This document shows, one piece after another, positions 37,959 through 51,319 of a DNA stretch of 64,000 nt. The translations under genes and the position numbers were made by a program. The DNA is from a virus: the IMG/VR virus record IMGVR_UViG_3300029585_000085, positions 13,133 to 77,132 of that record; one strand, 5' to 3'. The notes under the pieces were generated by a model. That model had not been told where the DNA came from. It saw nothing but the letters and a program-made list of their open reading frames with translations, and made no database searches. Numbering within the stretch: the first letter of the stretch is position 1; every line of letters starts with the position of its first letter.

Positions 37959-38852
37959 TCAATATTTCGAGTAGGGTCCTCCCTTGCGGGTCTTCGGTAG
38001 CTTCTCGAAGTCCTCCTCTCCGACACAGAGGCCCATCAACGGCATGAGGTGCTCGATCACGAGTCGCCAGTCGAACCGCGGTGACTCCATGAGGTAGCCG
38101 GGATCCCATGCGCCAGATTTGATGTGGCGGCTGATCGGCGTGAGGTCTTCGTGTCCGAGTAGGCGCGGCGTCCTCCACCACTCAAACGGCCAGCGCTTTC
38201 GCTCTGCGATGTCGAGGGCGAGTAGGGCGATGGTCTGGTGTTGCTCCAGGGTGAAGTAGCTCCCCGGGTATGCCGGCTTGAGTCCCCTCTCGATCCAGTA
38301 CCTGGTGAGCGGCGGGCATTCGACGTGGATGGCGTAAGGGTTGACGGTTTTCGTCCCCGGAGTGAGGTCGAGGGGGTTCGCGTAGCCCGGCCAGCGCTTC
38401 CGCCAGCGCCTTACCAGGGATCGGGGGAGGTCCTTCTCCCAGTTGCCGCCGTACTTCCCGAGGATGCTTTGGCGTTGCCCCTTCTGCCCTTTCTTCTTGT
38501 TCTCGGTGGTTCCGACTCCGTTGGCCTGCTCGCCCTCCCATGCCATCTGGATCAGGTCGCCGCCCTCGTGGCCCCTGTAGCCGTTGACGTAGTGACAGCC
38601 GTGACTCTGGCTGTAGTAGTTCTCCGCTCGGACCGTCGGGTACTGGCCATTCTTGGCGGCCTTGTCGGGAAGACCCGATCCCGTAGTGTGAACCACCAGC
38701 GCGTACTCGCCCCCTATCCAGCCCTCCGGCCGGTCCTTGTCGTCCCAGGCCTTGCCGGAGTGGATCGCGAAGTCGCTCCATCCTGTGTCTTCTACCGGCT
38801 CTCGGGGAGCCTCCATCGCGTCGATTCGGAAGTGTGCCATGCGCTCAGTCAT
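37959..38852 (-). CDS. Endolysin, N-acetylmuramoyl-L-alanine amidase (Amidase_2)
   Basis: LVVHTTG, HY, IHVEC, LLGHEDL...WDPG zinc-amidase motifs. Confidence 0.85.
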   Translation of the reverse strand: MTERMAHFRIDAMEAPREPVEDTGWSDFAIHSGKAWDDKDRPEGWIGGEYALVVHTTGSGLPDKAAKNGQYPTVRAENYYSQSHGCHYVNGYRGHEGGDLIQMAWEGEQANGVGTTENKKKGQKGQRQSILGKYGGNWEKDLPRSLVRRWRKRWPGYANPLDLTPGTKTVNPYAIHVECPPLTRYWIERGLKPAYPGSYFTLEQHQTIALLALDIAERKRWPFEWWRTPRLLGHEDLTPISRHIKSGAWDPGYLMESPRFDWRLVIEHLMPLMGLCVGEEDFEKLPKTRKGGPYSKY

Positions 38853-39688: not shown

Positions 39689-40027
39689 TTAGCGGGTGTA
39701 GTCGAGCCAGCGGCGGGCCTGGCCGAAGGAGACGCGGCCGCCGTACTTCCAGCCGCTGAGGCGGTAGGCGCCGTCCTTGCGGCGTGTCGCCGTGAAGGTG
39801 CGACCGTCGGGGTCTTCGTAGGTCATGTAGCTCTGAGACTCGCTGAGGCCGTTGTCGTCGCAGCGCTTCGATCCCCTCTCGCGAAGGGTGACGCGGTGGC
39901 CGCTTTTGGAAATTGCGATCACGTCGCAGGGAATGCGGTCGCCCGAGTCAATGGTGGCCAGGTCGCCAACTCCGGCGGGGCTCTGGGTTCTCTCGGGGCT
40001 GGGCTTAGTTGCGGTGTTTTGTGCCAT
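39689..40027 (-). CDS. Hypothetical protein (MAQNTATK..., 112 aa)
   Basis: AAGGAG RBS; first gene left of the divergent promoter. Confidence 0.7.
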   Translation of the reverse strand: MAQNTATKPSPERTQSPAGVGDLATIDSGDRIPCDVIAISKSGHRVTLRERGSKRCDDNGLSESQSYMTYEDPDGRTFTATRRKDGAYRLSGWKYGGRVSFGQARRWLDYTR

Positions 40028-40045
40028 GTTGGTCTCCTTGGTTTG

Positions 40046-40155
40046 CGTCGTCAACAATAGTAGTAGGCCATAACTCGAAGATTCTATCCATCCTTTTTCC
40101 GGTTTTCCTGGACAAAAGATTGGTTCAATCGTAGATTGATGATGTTGACGACGGG
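40046..40155. promoter_or_regulatory. Divergent promoter region with inverted CGTCGTCAACA motifs
   Basis: TGGACA(40109)-17-TAGATT(40132) rightward; motif at 40046-56 and inverted at 40143-53. Confidence 0.7.
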
Positions 40156-40180
40156 CCCGAGGGCCTAGAAAGGGATCGAG

Positions 40181-40432
40181 ATGACGAAATTTGCCCAGTG
40201 GTTTAAGACCTTCGACGAGGAGAAGCAGACCCCCTACGCGAGCTGGGAGCTTTCCGCAAAGGACGGAACGCCCCATTTCATCAATTCGGATGTGGTCAAG
40301 GAAGCGATCCTCTCCGCGCCCGCAAACGAGCAGGAGCAACTCAGAGACATGCTCGTCCGCCTCGACTTTGCCAACGCCGACATCAACGACTTCTATCGCC
40401 ACCTGGCCCAGGCATTGGTCAACGGCCTATGA
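40181..40432 (+). CDS. Hypothetical protein
   Basis: 83 aa, AAGGGA RBS, downstream of the promoter. Confidence 0.75.
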   Translation: MTKFAQWFKTFDEEKQTPYASWELSAKDGTPHFINSDVVKEAILSAPANEQEQLRDMLVRLDFANADINDFYRHLAQALVNGL

Positions 40433-42164: not shown

Positions 42165-42187
42165 TTTCTATCCTTTCTGTTGTTCCT

Positions 42188-42363
42188 AAAAAGTGAGGAA
42201 GTGATCGATGAGGGACTCGAACCCCCAGCACCGGACCCTTCATCCATCTGTCGGGTCGTGGGTTTCACCCCACCACGCTGTCCGGACCGTTCCCAGGCTA
42301 TTAGGCGCCCATTGCGCCAAAGAGGGACTTGAACCCCCACCACCATGGACGATCACTTCCTCA
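42188..42363 (-). ncRNA. Candidate double tRNA-elbow (Y RNA/YrlA-like topology) structured RNA
   Basis: 14-bp terminal stem, two T-arms GGGGG-TTC(A/G)AGT-CCCTC, D-arm TA-GCC-TGGGAAC-GGT, 3' CTTTTT tail. Confidence 0.7.
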
Positions 42364-42655
42364 AACCGCCTTCCTTGAGCATTCGCTCAAACTCGGCCCA
42401 CATCGCTTCGTTCTCGGCAATGCGCGCCCAAATCTCCTCGCATGTCGGCGTTGGCTTCGATCCGCATGCGTCGCAGAGCCAGACCTCCGGGCCCTCTCCG
42501 AATCCGTCTCGGTGGATGGAGTAGTTCCCCTCCGCTGGCGATTCGCAGCAAGCGCACCACCCGACGAAGTGTTGGGTGTATGGGCCCATCGCCTCGCGTA
42601 GCGCGGAGGCTCCATCGTCGTAGTTGATGTACTTGTTGCGAGGCTTGCCGCCCAT
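42353..42655 (-). CDS. Hypothetical Cys-containing protein
   Basis: 100 aa, CACC and CDAC motifs. Confidence 0.7.
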   Translation of the reverse strand: MGGKPRNKYINYDDGASALREAMGPYTQHFVGWCACCESPAEGNYSIHRDGFGEGPEVWLCDACGSKPTPTCEEIWARIAENEAMWAEFERMLKEGGLRK

Positions 42656-43386
42656 TACCGCCTCAGCTCTCCGGCGAGTGCCTTGCTAACCAATTCCTGG
42701 ACGGAGTTGGGAAAGTTCTGCTCTTGCATCCACTTCAGGTATCCGCGCTGGCTATCCACCAGTTCCCCGCGATGTCTACCGAAGCCAAAGGCGGCTTCTC
42801 TGCCTCTCCATACGAAGTGGTGCGTTTCTCCGATCCAGTTCTCCACGTCGGGGTCGCATAGGATGGCAATTTCTCGCCAGTCCTCGTCGGAGTACCCCCA
42901 TCTCTCCATCATTGCGATGAGGACTTCCCCAGTTGCCTCTGCGTCTGCCTTTGCCTCGTGTGCGTCCTCCAGGGAGTCACCCACGAAGATCTGGTAGGCC
43001 CTCGACAGGGTCCGCGGTTCTTTGATGGCCCACATCTTGTGAGGGTCGACCGTGTACTTGCCCGGCGATATCTTCAGGCCGACTTTGTCGAACTCATGGC
43101 GAAGAAACCCGATGTCGAAGTTGACGCGGTAGCCGATGAAGACTTTCGCGGAGTCCACGATTCCATGGATCTCCTGTGCGAGTTCCCCGAACTTTGGGCA
43201 AGAGCAGACATCGTGCATCGAGATTCCGTGGATCGCCGTAGCCTCTGGCGGGATGCTTCGCTCTGGGTTGAATCGCCAAGTCTGAGACTCGCCGGTGTCC
43301 CAGTGGGTGATGCAAAGCTCGATGACCCGATGGCCATCCTCCGGGGCCTTCCCGGTTGTTTCAACGTCGAAGATGATGGCTTTCAT
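42655..43386 (-). CDS. DnaQ/DEDDh 3'-5' exonuclease
   Basis: IIFDVETTG, FDIGFL, AHEAKADA; C-terminal FGFGRHRG...YLKWM domain. Confidence 0.92.
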   Translation of the reverse strand: MKAIIFDVETTGKAPEDGHRVIELCITHWDTGESQTWRFNPERSIPPEATAIHGISMHDVCSCPKFGELAQEIHGIVDSAKVFIGYRVNFDIGFLRHEFDKVGLKISPGKYTVDPHKMWAIKEPRTLSRAYQIFVGDSLEDAHEAKADAEATGEVLIAMMERWGYSDEDWREIAILCDPDVENWIGETHHFVWRGREAAFGFGRHRGELVDSQRGYLKWMQEQNFPNSVQELVSKALAGELRR

Positions 43387-43646
43387 TGTTCTCCTGCCCA
43401 TTTCTCCCAGCATGGGATGCACAGGTCGCCCATGCCGGGAACTGCTTGTCTGTACTTGGCTCCGAGGACGTCGGAGCACCGGTGGCACCTCTTGGCCGTC
43501 GCGCGCAGGTCATGGGCTACAGCAAGGGCACCCAGTCGAATCTCGCGGTACCTGATGTTTGCTTCGTCATCGTCGGCGGCCCGCGGAATCATCGCGGCCT
43601 CTGCCCATCGGATCAGAGCCATGGCTTGTTCGTCGGTGAGCCTCAT
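43383..43646 (-). CDS. Hypothetical Zn-finger-like protein
   Basis: CHRC...CIPC; ATGA couplings. Confidence 0.6.
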   Translation of the reverse strand: MRLTDEQAMALIRWAEAAMIPRAADDDEANIRYREIRLGALAVAHDLRATAKRCHRCSDVLGAKYRQAVPGMGDLCIPCWEKWAGEQ

Positions 43647-43906
43647 CGCTTCACCATCTGAGCGGCAAAGTCCGCAACGTCGAACCCGTCCCATCCTTCC
43701 CTGATTGCCTCCTGTGCCCCCCTGAGGGCGGAGACGGCGCCACCGGCGCACTCGGCGGCGCTGGTCAACTGGGAGAGCTCCCACTCCTTCCACTTGTCGT
43801 CGTCGGCAATTGCGCTGCTCGGTGGGTTGTGGATGTCGTATTCCTTCGCGAACACGGCGGCCCACACCATCTGCTCCGCTGCTGTCATCGGCTTGACCTT
43901 AGGCAT
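43643..43906 (-). CDS. Hypothetical protein
   Basis: 87 aa from MPKVK. Confidence 0.6.
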   Translation of the reverse strand: MPKVKPMTAAEQMVWAAVFAKEYDIHNPPSSAIADDDKWKEWELSQLTSAAECAGGAVSALRGAQEAIREGWDGFDVADFAAQMVKR

Positions 43907-45188
43907 CCTGCGCCTCTCCTTCTCGCATGATGATCGCGCCCTCGTCGCTCTCCCCGACTCTCTCAAGCCACACCCGGAGGTCGTTGAGTTCCGCGAACTC
44001 GCGAACCAGAGCCAGGGAGTCCTCGTCGAGTAGAGCTCCGTCCTCTACCCAGATGTCTTGAAGCTCAGGCTTCAGAGACCAGGCGATTGCAATCGAAGCG
44101 CGAAGCTTCTCTGCTCCGCTGGCCTGGTCGAAGGGAGAGCCGTTGAGCTGGAGTCCGTCTTCATCAAAGGTGAGGCCAGGGATCGGCATCTCCGCTTTGG
44201 CTAGAGCCTCTTTGCGGAGGTCCTTGAGAGCCTCGATCGTCTGCGAAGCGGCGCGCGACTCCTCCTTGAGGTCGGCGAGCTCCTTGCTCACCTCTTCGTG
44301 CTGCTTGATCTGTGCGCGTATCGCTGCGACCTCTTCGCCTTGCGCCATGGCTTCGGACAGTCGCTCACGGACCTGGGCGATCTCTTCGTCGCTTGGGGCC
44401 TGAGAAGCGACCATGTCGAGGTCGGCAAGCTTGAGCGCTTGGTCCTCCTTGAGCTTGTCGGCCTCCGACTTGGCGTCTTGCAGCTTCTGGCGGACCATTT
44501 TGAGTTCAGCCTGTATCTGCCGAACCTTCTCCTCTGCCTCGGAGATGTTCCGGCGAATGCCTTCCGCCCTGTGCTTGGCTTCCGTGGCCTTGGCGGAGTC
44601 TTCGAGGAGCACGTCGAGCGCCTTTTGCTGCCCTGCTGGGTCGATGGCGTCTTTCGGAAGCTTCGGCGGCCGTGTTCCAGCCTTGGCTTCGAGCTTCTTG
44701 ATGTCGCGGTTGAGTGCGCGCCGCTCTTCGTATGCCTCCTTCTCCTTGGCGAAGTTGTCATCAAGGTCGATGTCCAGCTCAACGCAGTCGAGCATGACCT
44801 CGCGCTGCTCCTTGGCCGGCAGTCGCGAGAAGCGCATGGGGTCGATGAAACGCGCGCCAACCAGCTCGTCGAGAATCTTCTGGGGGGACTTTAGAACTTT
44901 GCCGTCGCTGGTGACTTCGATCGTAGTGCTCTTCTTGGTGAACTTGCGCCGGACAACTAGCGCGCCTTCGTCGAACTCGATGCGAATCGACGCCTTGTCG
45001 GCGCCGTGGCGAATGGGCTCCTCTGGAACCTCCTTCTTGCCTCCCAGGGCTGCGCCCATGGCTCCCAGGAGCGAGCTTTTCCCGTGGGTGTTCTTGCCTC
45101 CGACCAGGATGAGGTTCCGCTCTCCTGGTTCTATGATGACGCTCTTCAGTCGCTTGTAGTCGTTGATCTCTAGCAGTGTGATTTTCAT
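43899..45188 (-). CDS. SMC/Rad50-like ABC ATPase with coiled coil
   Basis: GKNTHGKSS Walker A, long coiled coil, ASGAE signature, IWVEDGALLD Walker B/D-loop. Confidence 0.88.
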   Translation of the reverse strand: MKITLLEINDYKRLKSVIIEPGERNLILVGGKNTHGKSSLLGAMGAALGGKKEVPEEPIRHGADKASIRIEFDEGALVVRRKFTKKSTTIEVTSDGKVLKSPQKILDELVGARFIDPMRFSRLPAKEQREVMLDCVELDIDLDDNFAKEKEAYEERRALNRDIKKLEAKAGTRPPKLPKDAIDPAGQQKALDVLLEDSAKATEAKHRAEGIRRNISEAEEKVRQIQAELKMVRQKLQDAKSEADKLKEDQALKLADLDMVASQAPSDEEIAQVRERLSEAMAQGEEVAAIRAQIKQHEEVSKELADLKEESRAASQTIEALKDLRKEALAKAEMPIPGLTFDEDGLQLNGSPFDQASGAEKLRASIAIAWSLKPELQDIWVEDGALLDEDSLALVREFAELNDLRVWLERVGESDEGAIIMREGEAQDA

Positions 45189-45409
45189 TGCCCGTCTCTC
45201 CTTCTAAATTCTTCTTGTAGCTCGGCCAGATGGCCGCTCTGAATTGCGAGTTTGATTTCCATCCGTGCGTCTTCGATGGCCTGGTGACTTGCGAAGGTGT
45301 GCCGGAACATCACGCGGTACCCCGGGCCCAAGAAGTCCCATAGCATCGGGTGGCGTATCTCCAGCTCGACGCCTCCGTCCCTGGGGGTTCTTACGAAGTC
45401 CAGAATCAT
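45185..45409 (-). CDS. Hypothetical protein
   Basis: 74 aa, ATGA couplings on both sides. Confidence 0.6.
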   Translation of the reverse strand: MILDFVRTPRDGGVELEIRHPMLWDFLGPGYRVMFRHTFASHQAIEDARMEIKLAIQSGHLAELQEEFRRRDGQ

Positions 45410-45807
45410 CGCGCGGTCTCCTCTGGGTGCCCTGGGTCTCCGTGAAGCCATGGAAGCCGCATCCGACCGGGGCAAGTCTTGGCCACGATGTGAAGTACAT
45501 CTCGGTAGTACTCGATCCTGTCGTGTGCAAGGTCGGCCCTCTTCTGGGCTTCCGCGGTCGCATCGGACGACTCGGACAAGGCGGCGTTAAAATTCGCGGC
45601 CGCTTCCTTTAGCTCATCGACCTGCGATTGAAGCTCTTCGATGCGCTCTTGCGTCGCGTCGGCGTCCGAGGTCCATCGGACGTATCGGCTCCGGAGGTAG
45701 AAGCCCAGCGCGCCCAGCGCAATGATTGCGGAGACGGCTGCAAGCCCCAGTAAGGCTTTGGCTATTTTCGATTCGTTGTTTGGGTTTTTTCGCTGTGGTA
45801 GTTTCAT
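45406..45807 (-). CDS. TM-anchored coiled-coil protein
   Basis: N-terminal TM helix followed by a coiled coil. Confidence 0.7.
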   Translation of the reverse strand: MKLPQRKNPNNESKIAKALLGLAAVSAIIALGALGFYLRSRYVRWTSDADATQERIEELQSQVDELKEAAANFNAALSESSDATAEAQKRADLAHDRIEYYRDVLHIVAKTCPGRMRLPWLHGDPGHPEETAR

Positions 45808-45836
45808 CTTACTTCAACGCCATGAAGTGAAAGTCT

Positions 45837-45878
45837 GGGAGTCCGCTGGCATTTAGCCTCCAGTGGACTCCCTTTTTT
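45837..45878 (+). terminator. Intrinsic terminator oriented for + (antisense) transcription
   Basis: GGGAGTCCGCTGG/CCAGTGGACTCCC 13-bp stem followed by TTTTTT. Confidence 0.7.
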
Positions 45879-45971
45879 GTTCTCAAAAAGTGGGGTGGGC
45901 CGCCTTCTTGCCGCCCCTCTCGGGGCATAGTTTGTTGACGACTACGGAGACCGAGAGGCGGCCCATCCCTA
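45878..45971 (-). ncRNA. Nested long hairpin with GTCGTCAACA in its apex and a CACTTTTT tail
   Basis: Stems GGGTGGGCC/GGCCCATCC, CCTCTCGG/CCGAGAGG and TAGT/ACTA. Confidence 0.5.
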
Positions 45972-46334
45972 AAATTCTCCGCCCCAGTATGGGGGCTCCG
46001 AGGCCAAGGCATCCAGCTCTTCCTCGGCCGCCTCTTCGGCGTAGATCTCCTCCTCTTCCGAGATCTCCGCTTCCTCCTGGTCGGCCTCGGCCTGGAGATT
46101 GAGTGGTTCGTACTTCACGAGTCGCGCCTCAAGGTGTGCGACCCGATCGCGTAGCTCTTCGGTGTGGCGAGGGTCGATGGCAACGCCGCAGTGGTCACAG
46201 TACCCAGACTCTGGTGGCTCGGGGTCGGGCATGAAAGAGCTGGGGCCTACCTGCTTGAGATAGTGGACCGACTCGTTGCCGTCCTTGTCGATGTGAACTT
46301 TGCGCATATGGCGCGTTGTGAATTTCTTTGCCAC
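45969..46334 (-). CDS. Hypothetical protein, CxxC and acidic tail
   Basis: 121 aa. Confidence 0.7.
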   Translation of the reverse strand: MAKKFTTRHMRKVHIDKDGNESVHYLKQVGPSSFMPDPEPPESGYCDHCGVAIDPRHTEELRDRVAHLEARLVKYEPLNLQAEADQEEAEISEEEEIYAEEAAEEELDALASEPPYWGGEF

Positions 46335-46336
46335 CG

Positions 46337-46747
46337 TTACCTCATCTTCCTTCTGGCTCTCATCATCCGGTCATGCACAGTGCTCCGTGCCATACCATAC
46401 TTGCGAGAGAGAGCATCAAGCTTAGCCCCTCGGATGTATTCGTCCAAAAGCTGATCGTCCTCGACTAGAGGGCATCCCTTGGCGATGGTCCAGGTCCTGA
46501 CGGATTCTCTCCGGCTGGGCAGTAGCGGCGAACCGCTCAGGCACGCGAGGTAGAGACTCTTCCGAGACAGGTCTGTGCCCAGCTTAAAAAGCTCCACCTT
46601 GACATCCTCCCCGTAGGAGACCCTTGACCACCAGATGTCCGCGGCTGCTTCATTGAACAGGCGGACGGCCTTCCTCTTTTCTGAGTAGAAAAACGATTCT
46701 GGCCCGCTCTCAGGGCGCGGCACCTGGACTTCCCAGGCGAAGATCAC
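46337..46747 (-). CDS. Protein with C-terminal HTH (Mor/sigma region 4-like)
   Basis: GTG 46747 coupled to the helicase stop; LDALSRKYGMARSTVHDRM. Confidence 0.65.
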   Translation of the reverse strand: MIFAWEVQVPRPESGPESFFYSEKRKAVRLFNEAAADIWWSRVSYGEDVKVELFKLGTDLSRKSLYLACLSGSPLLPSRRESVRTWTIAKGCPLVEDDQLLDEYIRGAKLDALSRKYGMARSTVHDRMMRARRKMR

Positions 46748-48282
46748 AGCGTTCCCTCGACCCAGGTGAGCAGCTCTTTGGCGCGAGTGATCGCCACGTA
46801 CTCGATGTTCTCCTCTTCGTCGGCAGAGGCCCACTGCGGCGGCTTTTTCCTGCGGCTGAAGAAGGTGTCCTCCAGGAGCCAAACGCGATCAGCCTCTAAC
46901 CCCTTCGATCGGTGGACAGAGCTGAGGATGATCTTCCGCCCATCGTTGTCCTTGGTGTCCTCGAAGAGCATCTCGATGCGAGAGATGATGGCGTCGGCGC
47001 TGTCCAAGCCGTCCATTAGGGAGCAGAGCGTCTCGTACTGGTCGCTCACGCGCTCGATTGTCGGGAGCCCCTTCTCGCCTCGGAGTTCGGCCTTGGCGAT
47101 CTCGCGTTCGTACCAGCGTTCCAGGGCAGCGCAGAAGCCCTCGAAGTCTCCAGGGGCGATGCGGTCGACCTTGCGAACGATGCCCTTCAGGCCAGCGCCA
47201 ACGTCGCGCCCCTCAATGTTGGCGCGCTTCCCGTCCCGCAGGAGCTTGAGACAAGCAGAGACCAGCGGGGCGTTTGTGCGCGAGAGGATGAAGTCACCGG
47301 GCTCTGCTCGGTCGAGCGCCATCCCAATGTTGGCCTTGGCAACCTTGCCCGCGCAGTTGCCTTCGTAGGCCTTGAAGTCTAGGACCAGGCGCTTGGCTTC
47401 GCGAACGATGTTCTTGCCGCATCGGTAGGTTGTGGTGAGGCCCAGCTCCTTGGCCTTGAGAGAATGAAGTAGGCGGTCCAGGCTCGAAGAGTCGGCCCCG
47501 CGGAATCCATAGATGGCCTGCTTGTCGTCGCCGACTACGGCGATCCGTCCGTTCTTCCGGCAGACGCCCATGGCCAGGTCGATTTGGCTTCGGTTCATGT
47601 CCTGGGCCTCGTCGATGACCACCAGGTCATAGCGTGGGCGAATCCAGCCGTTGCGGACGGGAAGCCAGATCATGTCGTCGAAGTCGATAGTCCCGTCCTT
47701 GAGTTCGCAGCCGACGCGAAGAATCTCGATCGCGGTTCCGGCCAGCCAGGTCTCGTCGTACCCCTTCTCCTCCCACTTCTCGTCGGTCTGGATGTCGAAG
47801 TTGGCAGCCGTGTCCATGGCCAGGCCAAGCTCTTCGGGCTCGACCTCGGCGCCGCTTCCAATCATCGGGGCCGTTGCCTTGAGGACTGCCGCGAGCTTCA
47901 CCGCGTCTTTAAGAGGGGCATCCGGCGCGCCTCGGTGTACTCGCTTTGCGATCCCTAGGGCGCGCTTACCCTTGGTGTCGAGCCCGACTTTCCCCCAGGC
48001 GTTGCGAACAAACCCGAAGCCGACGGAGTGCAGCGTCTTGGCCTCTGCTCCTGGGTGGGTGAGCCTTGCGTCCAGCTCCACCGCGATTTTCTTGTTGAAG
48101 GCAGCCAGCAGAATCTTGCGCTCAGGTGCGTAGGTGACGCCCTCGACGATGGTGGTCGTCTTGCCAGTTCCGGCGCGGGCGCGGACCACAAGGTTGCCGT
48201 CTCCGGCTTTGAACCAAGAAAAGATGGCTCGTTGTTGTTGGCTCCAGTCTTTAGGCATCGGGATTCTCTCCAAGTAGTGCAT
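46744..48282 (-). CDS. UvrD/Rep-family SF1 helicase
   Basis: ARAGTGKTT, VIDEAQD, VGDDKQAIYGFRGAD, TYRC, SVHRSKGLE, YVAITRA. Confidence 0.95.
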   Translation of the reverse strand: MHYLERIPMPKDWSQQQRAIFSWFKAGDGNLVVRARAGTGKTTTIVEGVTYAPERKILLAAFNKKIAVELDARLTHPGAEAKTLHSVGFGFVRNAWGKVGLDTKGKRALGIAKRVHRGAPDAPLKDAVKLAAVLKATAPMIGSGAEVEPEELGLAMDTAANFDIQTDEKWEEKGYDETWLAGTAIEILRVGCELKDGTIDFDDMIWLPVRNGWIRPRYDLVVIDEAQDMNRSQIDLAMGVCRKNGRIAVVGDDKQAIYGFRGADSSSLDRLLHSLKAKELGLTTTYRCGKNIVREAKRLVLDFKAYEGNCAGKVAKANIGMALDRAEPGDFILSRTNAPLVSACLKLLRDGKRANIEGRDVGAGLKGIVRKVDRIAPGDFEGFCAALERWYEREIAKAELRGEKGLPTIERVSDQYETLCSLMDGLDSADAIISRIEMLFEDTKDNDGRKIILSSVHRSKGLEADRVWLLEDTFFSRRKKPPQWASADEEENIEYVAITRAKELLTWVEGTL

Positions 48283-49127: not shown

Positions 49128-49279
49128 GCCTGCACCGCCCGCGCCCAGAAGGTCCGGTGACCGTAGCCTTTGGCGATCGTCTTCGCCTTGGCCTGCGCGT
49201 TCTCTTCGGTTGCGTAGAAGGTTGCGAGCTGAACTCGTCCAACCATGGCAACCCAGCAAAGTCTCTCGGTCTTTTTCAT
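49124..49279 (-). CDS. Small hypothetical protein, first gene of the leftward operon
   Basis: 51 aa, AAGGGA RBS. Confidence 0.6.
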   Translation of the reverse strand: MKKTERLCWVAMVGRVQLATFYATEENAQAKAKTIAKGYGHRTFWARAVQA

Positions 49280-49315
49280 ATCGGTCCCTTTCTGGGCTGC
49301 TCTCTGCGAGCTGCC

Positions 49316-49410
49316 CCCGTCGTCAACATCATCAATATTCCATACCTCTGAGACGGCATCCATCATTTTCCGCGTATTCTGGACAAAAACCGGATCGGTT
49401 CTGATAGCCT
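49316..49410. promoter_or_regulatory. Second divergent promoter region, paralogous to 40046-40155
   Basis: 21-nt exact inverted match to 40135-40155; shared TCCATC..TTTTCCG..CTGGACAAAA core. Confidence 0.7.
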
Positions 49411-49417
49411 TTTCGCC

Positions 49418-51319
49418 ATGGCAGATAGGCGAATCGAGTACATGGAGTTGAATAGCGTCCTCCCCGCAAAGAGGAACCCGAAGGGCCACGACATCGCTGA
49501 GATCAAGGCCTCGTATAAGCGCTTCGCAGCCCAGGACTCTCCAGTGCTCGACGAGAGGACCAAGAGGCTCCTGTCGGGCCACGGCCGAGTGGAGGCGCTC
49601 CAGGCCCTCAGGGACGCCGGAGAGAACGCCCCGGACGGGATTCGCAACGTGGATGGGCGCTGGTTCGTACCGGTTCAGCGCGGAGGCAGGACGAAAAACG
49701 ACCGAGAGGCAGAGGCCTACATCATGGCCGCCAACCGCCTCACCGAGAAAGGCGGATGGGACGGCGACATCCTGGCCCAGATGCTCAGCGACCAGGAGGA
49801 CTTCGAGGGGATCGGCTGGTCCGGCGAAGACGACCCGGACCTCATCGCGCTGCTCGCTGCCGACGATACCGACCTGGGCACCCTGGGAGACGACGCCGGG
49901 ACCGAGGACGACGAGGAGGATGATGACGATGCGATCCCGCCCAAGGTTGACCGGCCAAAGTTCGAATACGAAGAGCAGCGAGAGGTCGGGCCTCACCGGA
50001 TTGTCTGCTCCGATTGCATCGCGTACCTGCGAACACTCCCCGACAACTCGGTGGATGCCATTGTGACGGACCCGCCCTACGGGATCGGCTTCATGGGCAA
50101 GGAGTGGGACAGCTCGGTGCCTGGCATCGAGTGGGCCAAGGAATGCCTCCGTGTCCTCAAGCCAGGCGGCCACATCGTCGCCTTTGCCTCTACTCGCACG
50201 GTTCACCGCTTAGGGGTCACCATCGAGGATGCCGGCTTCGAGATTCGCGACACAATCTCCTGGCTCTACTGGCAGGGCTTCCCGAAGAACCTGGACCTCT
50301 CCAAGGCCATCGACAAAATGAAGCACAACCGGGATGAGGTGCTTGAGGTGACGGCCTGGATTCGAGAAGCGCGCGACGCCGCAGGCCTCAAAAACACCCA
50401 CATCGATGACGCCTTCGGCTTCAAGGGGATGGCAGGACACTGGACCAGCTCAAAGAGCCAGCCATCTGTTCCGACACTGGAGCAGGTGCCGACGCTCTTG
50501 GAGGTGCTCAAGGTCGAAGAGCCGCCCGAGAGAATCAAGACGCTACTCCTCGACCTCAACGCGCAGAAGAACGAGCCCGGGCCCAACTGGTGGAACCGGA
50601 AGGTTGTCGGCGAGAAGGAGGGCGTGAATACGAAGAAGCAGGCGATCGCAGCCTCTACAGCGGCGCAAGGGATTACCAAGTCTTCGAAGCACACGTTCAA
50701 GATTTCGACGGCGGCAACGGAGAACGCGCAGAAGTGGGAAGGTTGGGGGACAGCGCTCAAGCCAGCTCAGGAGCCCGCCGTCCTCGCCAGGAAGCCAACC
50801 GAGGGCACCATCGCGAACAACGTACTCCGCCATGGTACCGGTGGTCTGAATATCGATGCCTGCCGCTTCGAGGACGGAGACGAGGCATGGCCAGGACCTC
50901 AGAGCGGAGAGGTCGACGGAGGCCGCTGGCCTGCCAACGTCTTCGCCTGCCCGAAGCCTTCACAGAGCGAGAAGAGCGCGGGGCTCGAAGAGTTCGGAGT
51001 CACCTCGGCAAACGAGGTCACGGGGCGCAAGGAAGGGTCGGCAGGGTCAAAAAATCCGCGCGCGGGCAAGACCGGCGACAGTGCGAATCCACATCCAACT
51101 GTTAAGCCTGTGCGCCTCATGAGGTGGCTACTACGCCTGGTAACTCCGCCAGGAGGCGTTGTGATCGACACCTTTCTAGGCTCTGGCACCACCATGGTCG
51201 CCGCAGAGAGAGAGGGGATCGCATGTATCGGTGTCGAGATGAATGGAGAATACGCCGCACTGTCGGAGGCTCGAACACGCTACGCTATTGAGAATGGGAA
51301 GCCGAGGTCCAAAAAGTAG
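49418..51319 (+). CDS. ParB-like domain fused to an N6A/N4C DNA methyltransferase with an internal insertion
   Basis: N-terminal NPK.HD...LSGHGRVEAL; DPPY; HPTVKP; DTFLGSGTT. Confidence 0.9.
   Translation: MADRRIEYMELNSVLPAKRNPKGHDIAEIKASYKRFAAQDSPVLDERTKRLLSGHGRVEALQALRDAGENAPDGIRNVDGRWFVPVQRGGRTKNDREAEAYIMAANRLTEKGGWDGDILAQMLSDQEDFEGIGWSGEDDPDLIALLAADDTDLGTLGDDAGTEDDEEDDDDAIPPKVDRPKFEYEEQREVGPHRIVCSDCIAYLRTLPDNSVDAIVTDPPYGIGFMGKEWDSSVPGIEWAKECLRVLKPGGHIVAFASTRTVHRLGVTIEDAGFEIRDTISWLYWQGFPKNLDLSKAIDKMKHNRDEVLEVTAWIREARDAAGLKNTHIDDAFGFKGMAGHWTSSKSQPSVPTLEQVPTLLEVLKVEEPPERIKTLLLDLNAQKNEPGPNWWNRKVVGEKEGVNTKKQAIAASTAAQGITKSSKHTFKISTAATENAQKWEGWGTALKPAQEPAVLARKPTEGTIANNVLRHGTGGLNIDACRFEDGDEAWPGPQSGEVDGGRWPANVFACPKPSQSEKSAGLEEFGVTSANEVTGRKEGSAGSKNPRAGKTGDSANPHPTVKPVRLMRWLLRLVTPPGGVVIDTFLGSGTTMVAAEREGIACIGVEMNGEYAALSEARTRYAIENGKPRSKK

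Follow-up and report, generated by a model that had tools for sequence, protein, structure and literature searches.

A terminator-like hairpin in an uncultivated phage with a loop complementary to the leaders of three operons, its own included

Introduction

Regulatory RNAs of phages are, to our knowledge, described from a handful of model phages (P1, P4, P22 and lambda) and almost unexplored in environmental phages. The c4 RNA is encoded in the same phage operon as its targets and carries short loops complementary to two sites in the target leader, one of them covering the ribosome site; it lies upstream of the target genes and is cut out by RNase P. In P4 immunity, the CI RNA pairs an exposed sequence with repeated leader words of its own operon and causes premature termination in the leader. 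Small RNAs (sRNAs) derived from 3' untranslated regions (UTRs), such as CpxQ and SroC, are released by RNase E and act on unrelated mRNAs via Hfq, and the stoperators of mycobacteriophage L5 occur many times per genome in one orientation relative to transcription. In Staphylococcus aureus, the icaR mRNA has a 3'-UTR element that pairs with its own Shine-Dalgarno region, which blocks initiation and creates a substrate for RNase III (PMC3868564), while in Bacillus subtilis hbs a contact between the 5' and 3' UTRs controls RNase action (PMC5737220). The c4 antisense RNA of phages P1/P7 is credited to Citron & Schuster 1992 in PMC8546580. Here we describe hairpin B, a branched hairpin found in a 64,000-nt stretch of DNA (the window), which comprises bases 13133-77132 of IMG/VR record IMGVR_UViG_3300029585_000085, the 82,734-bp genome of an uncultivated phage whose record ends in direct terminal repeats of 99 bp.

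Results

Hairpin B lies on the minus strand in a 161-nt gap (45808-45968) between two minus-strand genes, at the end of an operon that encodes a UvrD-like helicase (the helicase operon). Its parts, in window coordinates, are as follows.

45879-45973, minus strand: hairpin B module, made up of a 5' UUUA flank, the branched hairpin and an ACUUUUU tail; matched by the covariance model R1
45892-45969, minus strand: hairpin B proper, 78 nt, with an outer helix, a three-way junction, an apical stem-loop and a second small hairpin
45957-45969 paired with 45892-45904, minus strand: outer GC-rich helix, extended by a few bulged pairs
45947-45957, minus strand: junction strand CUCUCGGUCUC, antisense to the leader ribosome-binding block RAGAYCGA
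45927-45945, minus strand: apical stem GUAGU/ACUAU, closing the loop
45932-45940, minus strand: apical 9-nt loop CGUCAACAA, which together with stem bases 45941-45942 is the complement of leader bases 1-10
45913-45926, minus strand: second small hairpin GCCCC-GAGA-GGGGC, inside hairpin B
45885-45889, minus strand: U-run after hairpin B, the predicted intrinsic termination point of the helicase operon

The minus strand of the gap folds far more stably than its shuffled versions (z = -5.4). The first G of hairpin B is the final base of the upstream stop codon, and CACUUUUUG, which contains U5, follows directly on its 3' side. With 13 pairs in a GC-rich outer helix followed by AC and U5, the element has the sequence form of an intrinsic terminator; a simple terminator scan omitted it because its loop and stem exceed the limits of that scan. 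Seven of the nine homologs have at least four consecutive U at this point, with UUAUU in L002 and UUU in L087. The apical loop is predicted to be unpaired with a probability of 0.95 in the window hairpin and of 0.63-0.97 over the homologs, and it stays exposed both in the branched fold and in an alternative, extended single hairpin, in which the junction strand pairs with CCGAG in the 5' half of the small hairpin and which is 0-11 kcal/mol less stable.

The homologs were collected along three routes: one close homolog of the 121-aa protein encoded upstream of the gap gave locus L002, helicase homologs at 60%-71% identity gave L003, L004, L005, L086, L087, L088 and L089, and a scan of viral contigs gave L006. 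Hairpin B was found in nine genomes (the window, L002-L006, L086, L087 and L089), the contig of L088 stopping before the hairpin; R1, which was built from five hairpins, recovered it in the relatives with E values of 1e-8 to 1e-27. Helicases of the carriers are 60%-71% identical to that of the window, with L002 much closer. Over 80 more distant helicase loci, R1 gave one weak match only, in L025, which proved to be a plain terminator-like hairpin with the motif absent. The system was absent from L090, single-protein scans of viral contigs with each neighbouring gene returned nothing, and an exact 27-mer of the hairpin apex had no match. A gapped pattern of the invariant hairpin words matched, among viral contigs, that of L006 only; the same kind of scan over metagenome contigs gave two matches that look like chance and added no members, and where distant loci had repeated GTTGAC words, these lay in coding sequence or had no relation to the motif. 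Judged from these searches, hairpin B is confined to a small clade of nine genomes.

An alignment of eight hairpin B sequences supplied the structure statistics. Standard pairs fill 95% of the alignment cells, and 14 pairs have changed on both sides, a number that none of 500 shuffles matched; when the registers were slid as a control, the paired fraction dropped to 42%-53%. Compensatory change affects 10 of the 16 pairs of the outer helix, while the second small hairpin (helix 4) is fully paired (100%), one of its pairs showing change on both sides and two of them on a single side. Reading the opposite strand would turn about 21 G.U cells into A.C mismatches, and R1 scores 112 bits on the minus strand versus 24.5 bits on the plus strand, which together indicate that hairpin B is a structure of the minus-strand RNA. 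Amid the divergence of the stems, three stretches are fixed: the loop YGUCAACAR, constant in nine of nine homologs, the junction word CGGUCU, invariant in the same nine, and CCCGAGAGGGG. The gap is 95% identical to that of L002, with flanking coding DNA at 80%-87%. A coding explanation (open reading frame 45809-46012) was ruled out by 2+2-nt insertions or deletions in the apical stem and by the compensatory changes. Rfam gave no match at gathering score in the window and matches at chance level only in the gap (E at least 0.56), and a tRNA scan of the DNA found nothing. This comparative record indicates that hairpin B is a real RNA element of phages, conserved and hitherto undescribed, and a member of no described family.

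The word displayed at the apex recurs at the heads of operons. The 10-mer TGTTGACGAC is present four times in the 82,734-bp genome, at 45933-45942 (+), opposite the hairpin loop, and at 40047 (-), 40143 (+) and 49319 (-); shuffles led to an expectation of 0.11 exact matches per window, and none of 100 shuffles reached four. All three of the latter copies lie 5-6 nt past the -10 element of sigma70-like promoters, that is, at the predicted +1, and the promoters of motif-bearing leaders follow the consensus TGGAYA-N17-TAnnnT.

49277-49370, minus strand: promoter P3 and leader of the helicase operon, with TGGATG-N17-AATATT, GATGA, the motif (49319-49328), a GC hairpin, a ribosome site and ATG at 49279
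40025-40100, minus strand: promoter P1 and leader, with the motif (40047-40056), the ribosome site AAGGAGACC and ATG at 40027
40109-40183, plus strand: promoter P2 and leader, with TGGACA-N17-TAGATT, the motif (40143-40152), a GC hairpin, a ribosome site and ATG at 40181
40153-40175, plus strand, and 49285-49318, minus strand: GC-rich hairpins of the leaders
49366-49420, plus strand: fourth promoter of the same type, TGGACA-N17-GATAGC at 49378, before a ParB-methyltransferase gene

P1 (minus) and P2 (plus) form a divergent pair heading further unassigned genes. The P3 operon holds small unassigned genes, the helicase and two further genes, and ends at hairpin B about 3.4 kb downstream; its leader is kept in L002 at 2849. 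Gene maps place a motif-bearing leader 2-4 kb upstream of the hairpin, on the same strand, in all nine phages, with no other terminator seen between the two. Leaders and hairpin resemble each other only over the 10-mer, which starts at the predicted +1; the likeness does not extend to the upstream promoter DNA, which fits an element of the transcript. The promoter at 49378 (+) is similar and has almost no leader and no TGTTGACGAC word, and thus the word appears to be an element added to the promoter rather than a part of it, with this promoter lying outside the regulon. The leaders fold with the 5' word and the ribosome site both free, so that both targets would be accessible; the ribosome-binding block is purine-rich (AGAAAGGGAYCGA or AAGGAGACC), and no terminator was found after the target word in the leaders.

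Several further observations concern the leaders. Nearly every leader, in the window as in the relatives, has a GC-rich hairpin between its 5' word and its ribosome site, kept in position and wholly different in sequence from leader to leader (P1 and one leader of L005 are without one); it may be a spacer for pairing at two sites or a stabiliser. Two other roles for the motif were discarded, namely the -35 element of a downstream promoter, as no leader has a -10 element at a fixed distance, and a fourth promoter on the plus strand at the hairpin, where the spacing to any -35/-10 is wrong. L005 has two further motif-bearing leaders at 13685 and 16064 (CGTTGACACC and AGTTGACACC), one about 200 nt past the hairpin pair and the other right behind a tRNA-like element; each structured RNA of L005 seems to be followed by a fresh start of transcription with this type of leader. 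The helicase ortholog of L005 (10001-12460; 819 aa) contains an intein with a homing-endonuclease-like insert according to precomputed Pfam matches.

Loop and leaders exist in two matched versions. In the GAC type (window, L002, L003 and L004), every leader carries TGTTGACGAC and the hairpin its complement, and in the ACC type (L005, L006, L086, L087 and L089), TGTTGACACC is found in the hairpin and in almost all leaders, the exception being one L006 leader that ends in ACA; the leaders of L088 are of the ACC type. In the complete 65.6-kb record of L006, GTTGACACC has two copies and no more, one lying in a leader and the other, on the opposite strand, in the hairpin. The two switched positions are the first loop base (C or U) and the adjoining stem base (U or G), such that the natural ACC-version loop is UGUCAACAG where the GAC version is CGUCAACAA, and the stem pair next to the loop changes from U-A (in four hairpins of the GAC type) to G-C (in four of the ACC type). 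Since the stem partner has changed together with the motif base, one nucleotide meets two constraints, keeping the stem and matching the leader. The duplex of the loop with its cognate leader spans 8-10 bp at a predicted -16.5 kcal/mol, and the predicted mean is -16.8 kcal/mol for pairs of the same type versus -9.8 kcal/mol across types; the motif change thus alters the predicted specificity. The helicase tree places ACC as ancestral and is compatible with one as well as two origins of GAC. An exposed loop whose complementarity to a leader word is kept through evolution is what a loop-displayed antisense RNA would be expected to present, and from the matched versions we conclude that the complementarity between loop and leader is under selection.

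These comparisons bear out much of a preliminary description of the locus, which had been drawn from the letters of the window. The hairpin, the apex motif and the leader copies it reported were all correct on re-reading; its hairpin with a loop complementary to the leaders is now a strand-specific, covarying structure whose loop and leader versions match in nine phages, and the 3'-UTR location it suggested agrees with a hairpin that ends an operon itself headed by a motif-bearing leader.

A second stretch of hairpin B also matches the leaders. In 18 of 18 leaders examined, the ribosome-binding block can pair with the junction strand, CUCGGUCUYC, over 7-12 contiguous positions. UCUUC-type hairpins accompany GAAGA-type leaders, and the leader bases that face the invariant G's are C or U only; within the 8-nt core, transitions that are compatible with wobble pairing outnumber incompatible ones by 13 to 4 in our own count. 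Read on the plus strand, hairpin B resembles a shortened leader, with the motif, a few bases and then GGAGACCGAG. The junction-strand match is the weaker line of evidence, being consistent with an RNA reading and not decisive.

Genomic context and further elements

The surrounding genes and the other elements of the gap are the following.

46744-48282, minus strand: UvrD-like helicase, replication/recombination module
43899-45188, minus strand: SbcC-like AAA ATPase, same module
42655-43488, minus strand: RNase T-like exonuclease, same module
46337-46882, helicase operon: helix-turn-helix (HTH)-like protein, with a weak PHROG match, and HTH_28 in the L003 homolog
45969-46334, minus strand: 121-aa gene without an assigned function, upstream of the gap
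45406-45807, minus strand: 133-aa membrane-anchored coiled-coil protein with weak spanin-like matches, downstream of the gap
45837-45878, plus strand: hairpin A and T6, a terminator facing the antisense direction; 45837-45849 pairs with 45860-45872
45811-45828, minus strand: small hairpin ACUUCA-UGGCGU-UGAAGU, just before the start codon (45807) of the 133-aa gene

Structural genes occupy the plus strand up to about 37 kb, and the minus-strand replication/recombination module is read from about 49.3 kb to 41 kb. Cultured phages gave no DNA match to this phage, and their best protein identity to it was 34%-36%. A weak Amidase_2 match, likely an endolysin, at 37959-38852 (-) lies downstream within the operon of the P1 leader; motif-bearing operons may therefore not all be early, as the preliminary description had called them.

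Hairpin A is the adjacent 13-bp terminator already noted in that description, and it does face the antisense direction: it has 13 pairs, one of them G.T, and is preceded on the gene strand by A6, which is T6 on the plus strand. In seven of eight relatives, a hairpin with a different stem sequence occupies this position, again with a gene-strand A-run before it. Among the window and L002-L005, the small hairpin before the 133-aa gene varies at a single base, which is C instead of U in L005; L006, L086 and L089 also have its AUGGCG core. The window copy contains a four-codon mini-ORF (M-A-L-K-stop) that overlaps the true start. The element may serve as a hairpin for translational control, encode a leader peptide or be a palindromic site for a protein. 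The end of the 121-aa gene contains, some 15 nt before hairpin B, a promoter-like TGGATG-N18-CATACT (45986-46015, -), from which a discrete RNA of about 100 nt could be made.

Other suggestions of the preliminary description fared less well. Its match of 13 in 15 positions between the flank at 45878-45892 and 42181-42195 is exact; however, CACTTTTT has two copies where 1.07 would be expected, and the relatives retain no more of it than the U-run. The ending CACUUUUU, a terminator tail, is common to hairpin B and the double-elbow RNA at 42.2 kb; in L003 the tail is CAUUUUU. Of the single circuit proposed to connect three non-coding elements, the leaders and the hairpin are upheld, while the double-elbow RNA drops out, the part it shares being a U-tract of the terminator type. 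A nut-like site with a boxA in the tail has to be abandoned: the tail beyond CAC-U5 is not conserved in relatives, the U-run is interrupted in L002, the element sits at the end of an operon and not behind its promoter, and the hairpin is branched and 78 nt long. The analysis identified no N-like gene. The double-elbow RNA itself (42197-42350, -) combines a closing stem with the T-loop-like words GGTTCAAGTCCC and GGTTCGAGTCCC; ARAGORN and Rfam gave no match to it, and the closing stem of a homolog in L003 (about 16040-16200) has compensatory changes.

Discussion

We favour, with moderate confidence, the explanation that hairpin B is a terminator-embedded 3'-UTR RNA that would pair with the 5' end and the ribosome site of leaders, that of its own operon included, with a repressive outcome. 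Start sites, termination, a stable fragment, pairing in vivo and the direction in which expression would change are what we infer here from sequence. Transcription from P3 would end at the U-run of hairpin B, the outer helix and U-run acting as the intrinsic terminator of the helicase operon, and hairpin A would block transcription arriving from the opposite direction. The apical loop would then kiss the single-stranded 5' end of a leader through its first 8-10 transcribed bases (UGUUGACGAC), in a helix that could be extended into the apical stem, while the junction strand (CUCGGUCUCC) would cover the Shine-Dalgarno and spacer block before the AUG, leaving the GC hairpin of the leader looped out. 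The predicted targets are P1 (40.05 kb), P2 (40.14 kb) and P3 (49.32 kb), the last driving the operon of the hairpin itself. Occlusion of the ribosome site would lower initiation and possibly create an RNase III substrate, as in icaR, resulting in negative feedback or a timed shut-off of the three operons. The hairpin may act in cis, by contact between the 5' and 3' ends of the P3 mRNA, or in trans, as a stable, decay-resistant 3' fragment working on all three leaders.

A number of results weigh against this explanation. The U-run is weak in L002 and L087, and the TGGATG-N18-CATACT sequence is present only in the window and L002, so that no conserved promoter precedes hairpin B. The evidence for co-variation comes from two motif versions, separated by one or more concerted switches of three to four sites in each genome, and a sequence-specific DNA-binding protein predicts an identical concerted change. 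For the junction strand, the test of wobble direction over the full fixed window is not significant (14 vs 9, p = 0.2), and its pairing is not specific, as 1680 genome sites reach E <= -11 kcal/mol with it. Net gains in RNAcofold, which cannot represent loop kissing, are modest (-1.5 to -11.8 kcal/mol), and pairing with the U-tail is preferred in 7 of 18 pairs. Finally, the loop target lies 25-45 nt upstream of the AUG, where loop pairing alone would not block ribosomes.

A bolder version, which we put forward tentatively as a possibility, makes the hairpin an mRNA "cyclisation" timer: it would appear once the polymerase has completed the 3.4-kb operon, clamp its own and the two sister leaders at both the 5' end and the ribosome site, and switch off or stabilise the regulon, with GAC and ACC as mutually blind types among related phages, comparable to immunity types.

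The concerted change of all copies is equally what a shift in the specificity of a regulator would produce, and TGTTGACRMC could be the asymmetric site of a phage or host DNA-binding regulator that works in the manner of L5 stoperators, its position at the apex being incidental. The motif overlaps the transcription start, a classic position for an operator, and an HTH-like protein (46337-46882) is encoded in the same operon. We nonetheless consider a DNA operator unlikely. The site is non-palindromic, and its hairpin copy is inverted relative to transcription, the orientation that pairing needs, which favours an RNA over a DNA site; it also falls exactly in the loop of a covarying, strand-specific RNA stem, where the stem base opposite the changed position has changed as well, as is not required of a DNA site. 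Similarity starts at the predicted +1 and does not reach promoter DNA, there is a single non-promoter site per genome, and four loci that keep the system (L006, L086, L087 and L089) lack the HTH-like protein. If a DNA operator were the true explanation, a three-operon regulon and its recognition word would still be defined in an uncultivated phage group.

The same complementarity and co-variation would also serve an opposite outcome, in which the loop of the 3' hairpin clamps the 5' ends of mRNAs, cyclises the P3 mRNA and raises expression, either by shielding those ends from 5'-end-dependent RNases or by organising translation. The loop matches the very 5' terminus, at which RNase E, RNase J and RppH sense a transcript, and not the ribosome site; by the gene maps, the hairpin is always in the same operon as a leader; and the contact in B. 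subtilis hbs provides a precedent (PMC5737220). We judge protection or activation improbable, as the complementarity of the junction strand to the Shine-Dalgarno block points to occlusion and the best-studied case of 5'-3' UTR pairing, icaR, is repressive (PMC3868564).

Least probable of all is a plain two-way terminator, in which hairpins B and A only stop transcription and the leader-like words are the relic of an inverted leader with no regulatory coupling, for although the GC-rich stems of B and A, each with a U-run on the strand that it would terminate (the gene strand for B, the opposite one for A), keep their positions in most relatives and the plus-strand likeness to a shortened leader would fit, a terminator needs a stem and not a fixed loop (here the stems diverged compensatorily while YGUCAACAR and CGGUCU stayed constant), a relic would not switch motif version along with the leaders, and gene conversion limited to 10 bp between dissimilar flanks is unlikely.

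On the favoured explanation of a repressive 3'-UTR RNA, a module of about 95 nt would both terminate an operon and act as antisense to the transcript 5' ends of a small regulon, the parent operon included, and natural compensatory evidence for it is already spread across nine genomes. If true, regulation from 3' UTR to 5' UTR, as in bacteria, extends to phage operons and could provide temporal control without a protein regulator, and the two natural specificity versions could furnish parts for orthogonal control.

Comparison with known systems

L5 stoperators share with this locus a short asymmetric word that stands at an early promoter and again in an intergenic gap; here, however, there is a single extra site in place of repeated ones, and it is inverted and set in the loop of a covarying hairpin. 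Like the 3'-UTR-derived sRNAs CpxQ and SroC, hairpin B would couple an intrinsic terminator to a conserved exposed seed, whereas its predicted targets include the parent leader and no conserved internal promoter accompanies it. The CI RNA of P4 is similarly a small phage RNA with an exposed sequence complementary to leader words of the operon from which it comes, but in the present phages no terminator follows the target word and hairpin B is located at the end of the operon. With c4 there is the further likeness that versions of the complementary word would define specificity types in both systems; hairpin B differs in standing at the 3' end, fused to a terminator, and in both fold and sequence, with no match to the Rfam C4 family. 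In icaR, as predicted here, the element occupies the 3' UTR of a transcription unit whose own leader it matches. Hairpin B departs from icaR in having two complementary segments, one for the 5' terminus and a more tentative one for the ribosome site, and in doubling as a putative terminator; moreover, it belongs to a phage, has three predicted target operons and bears no sequence relationship to icaR. By analogy, hairpin B would work most like a 3'-UTR-to-5'-UTR or c4-type antisense system.

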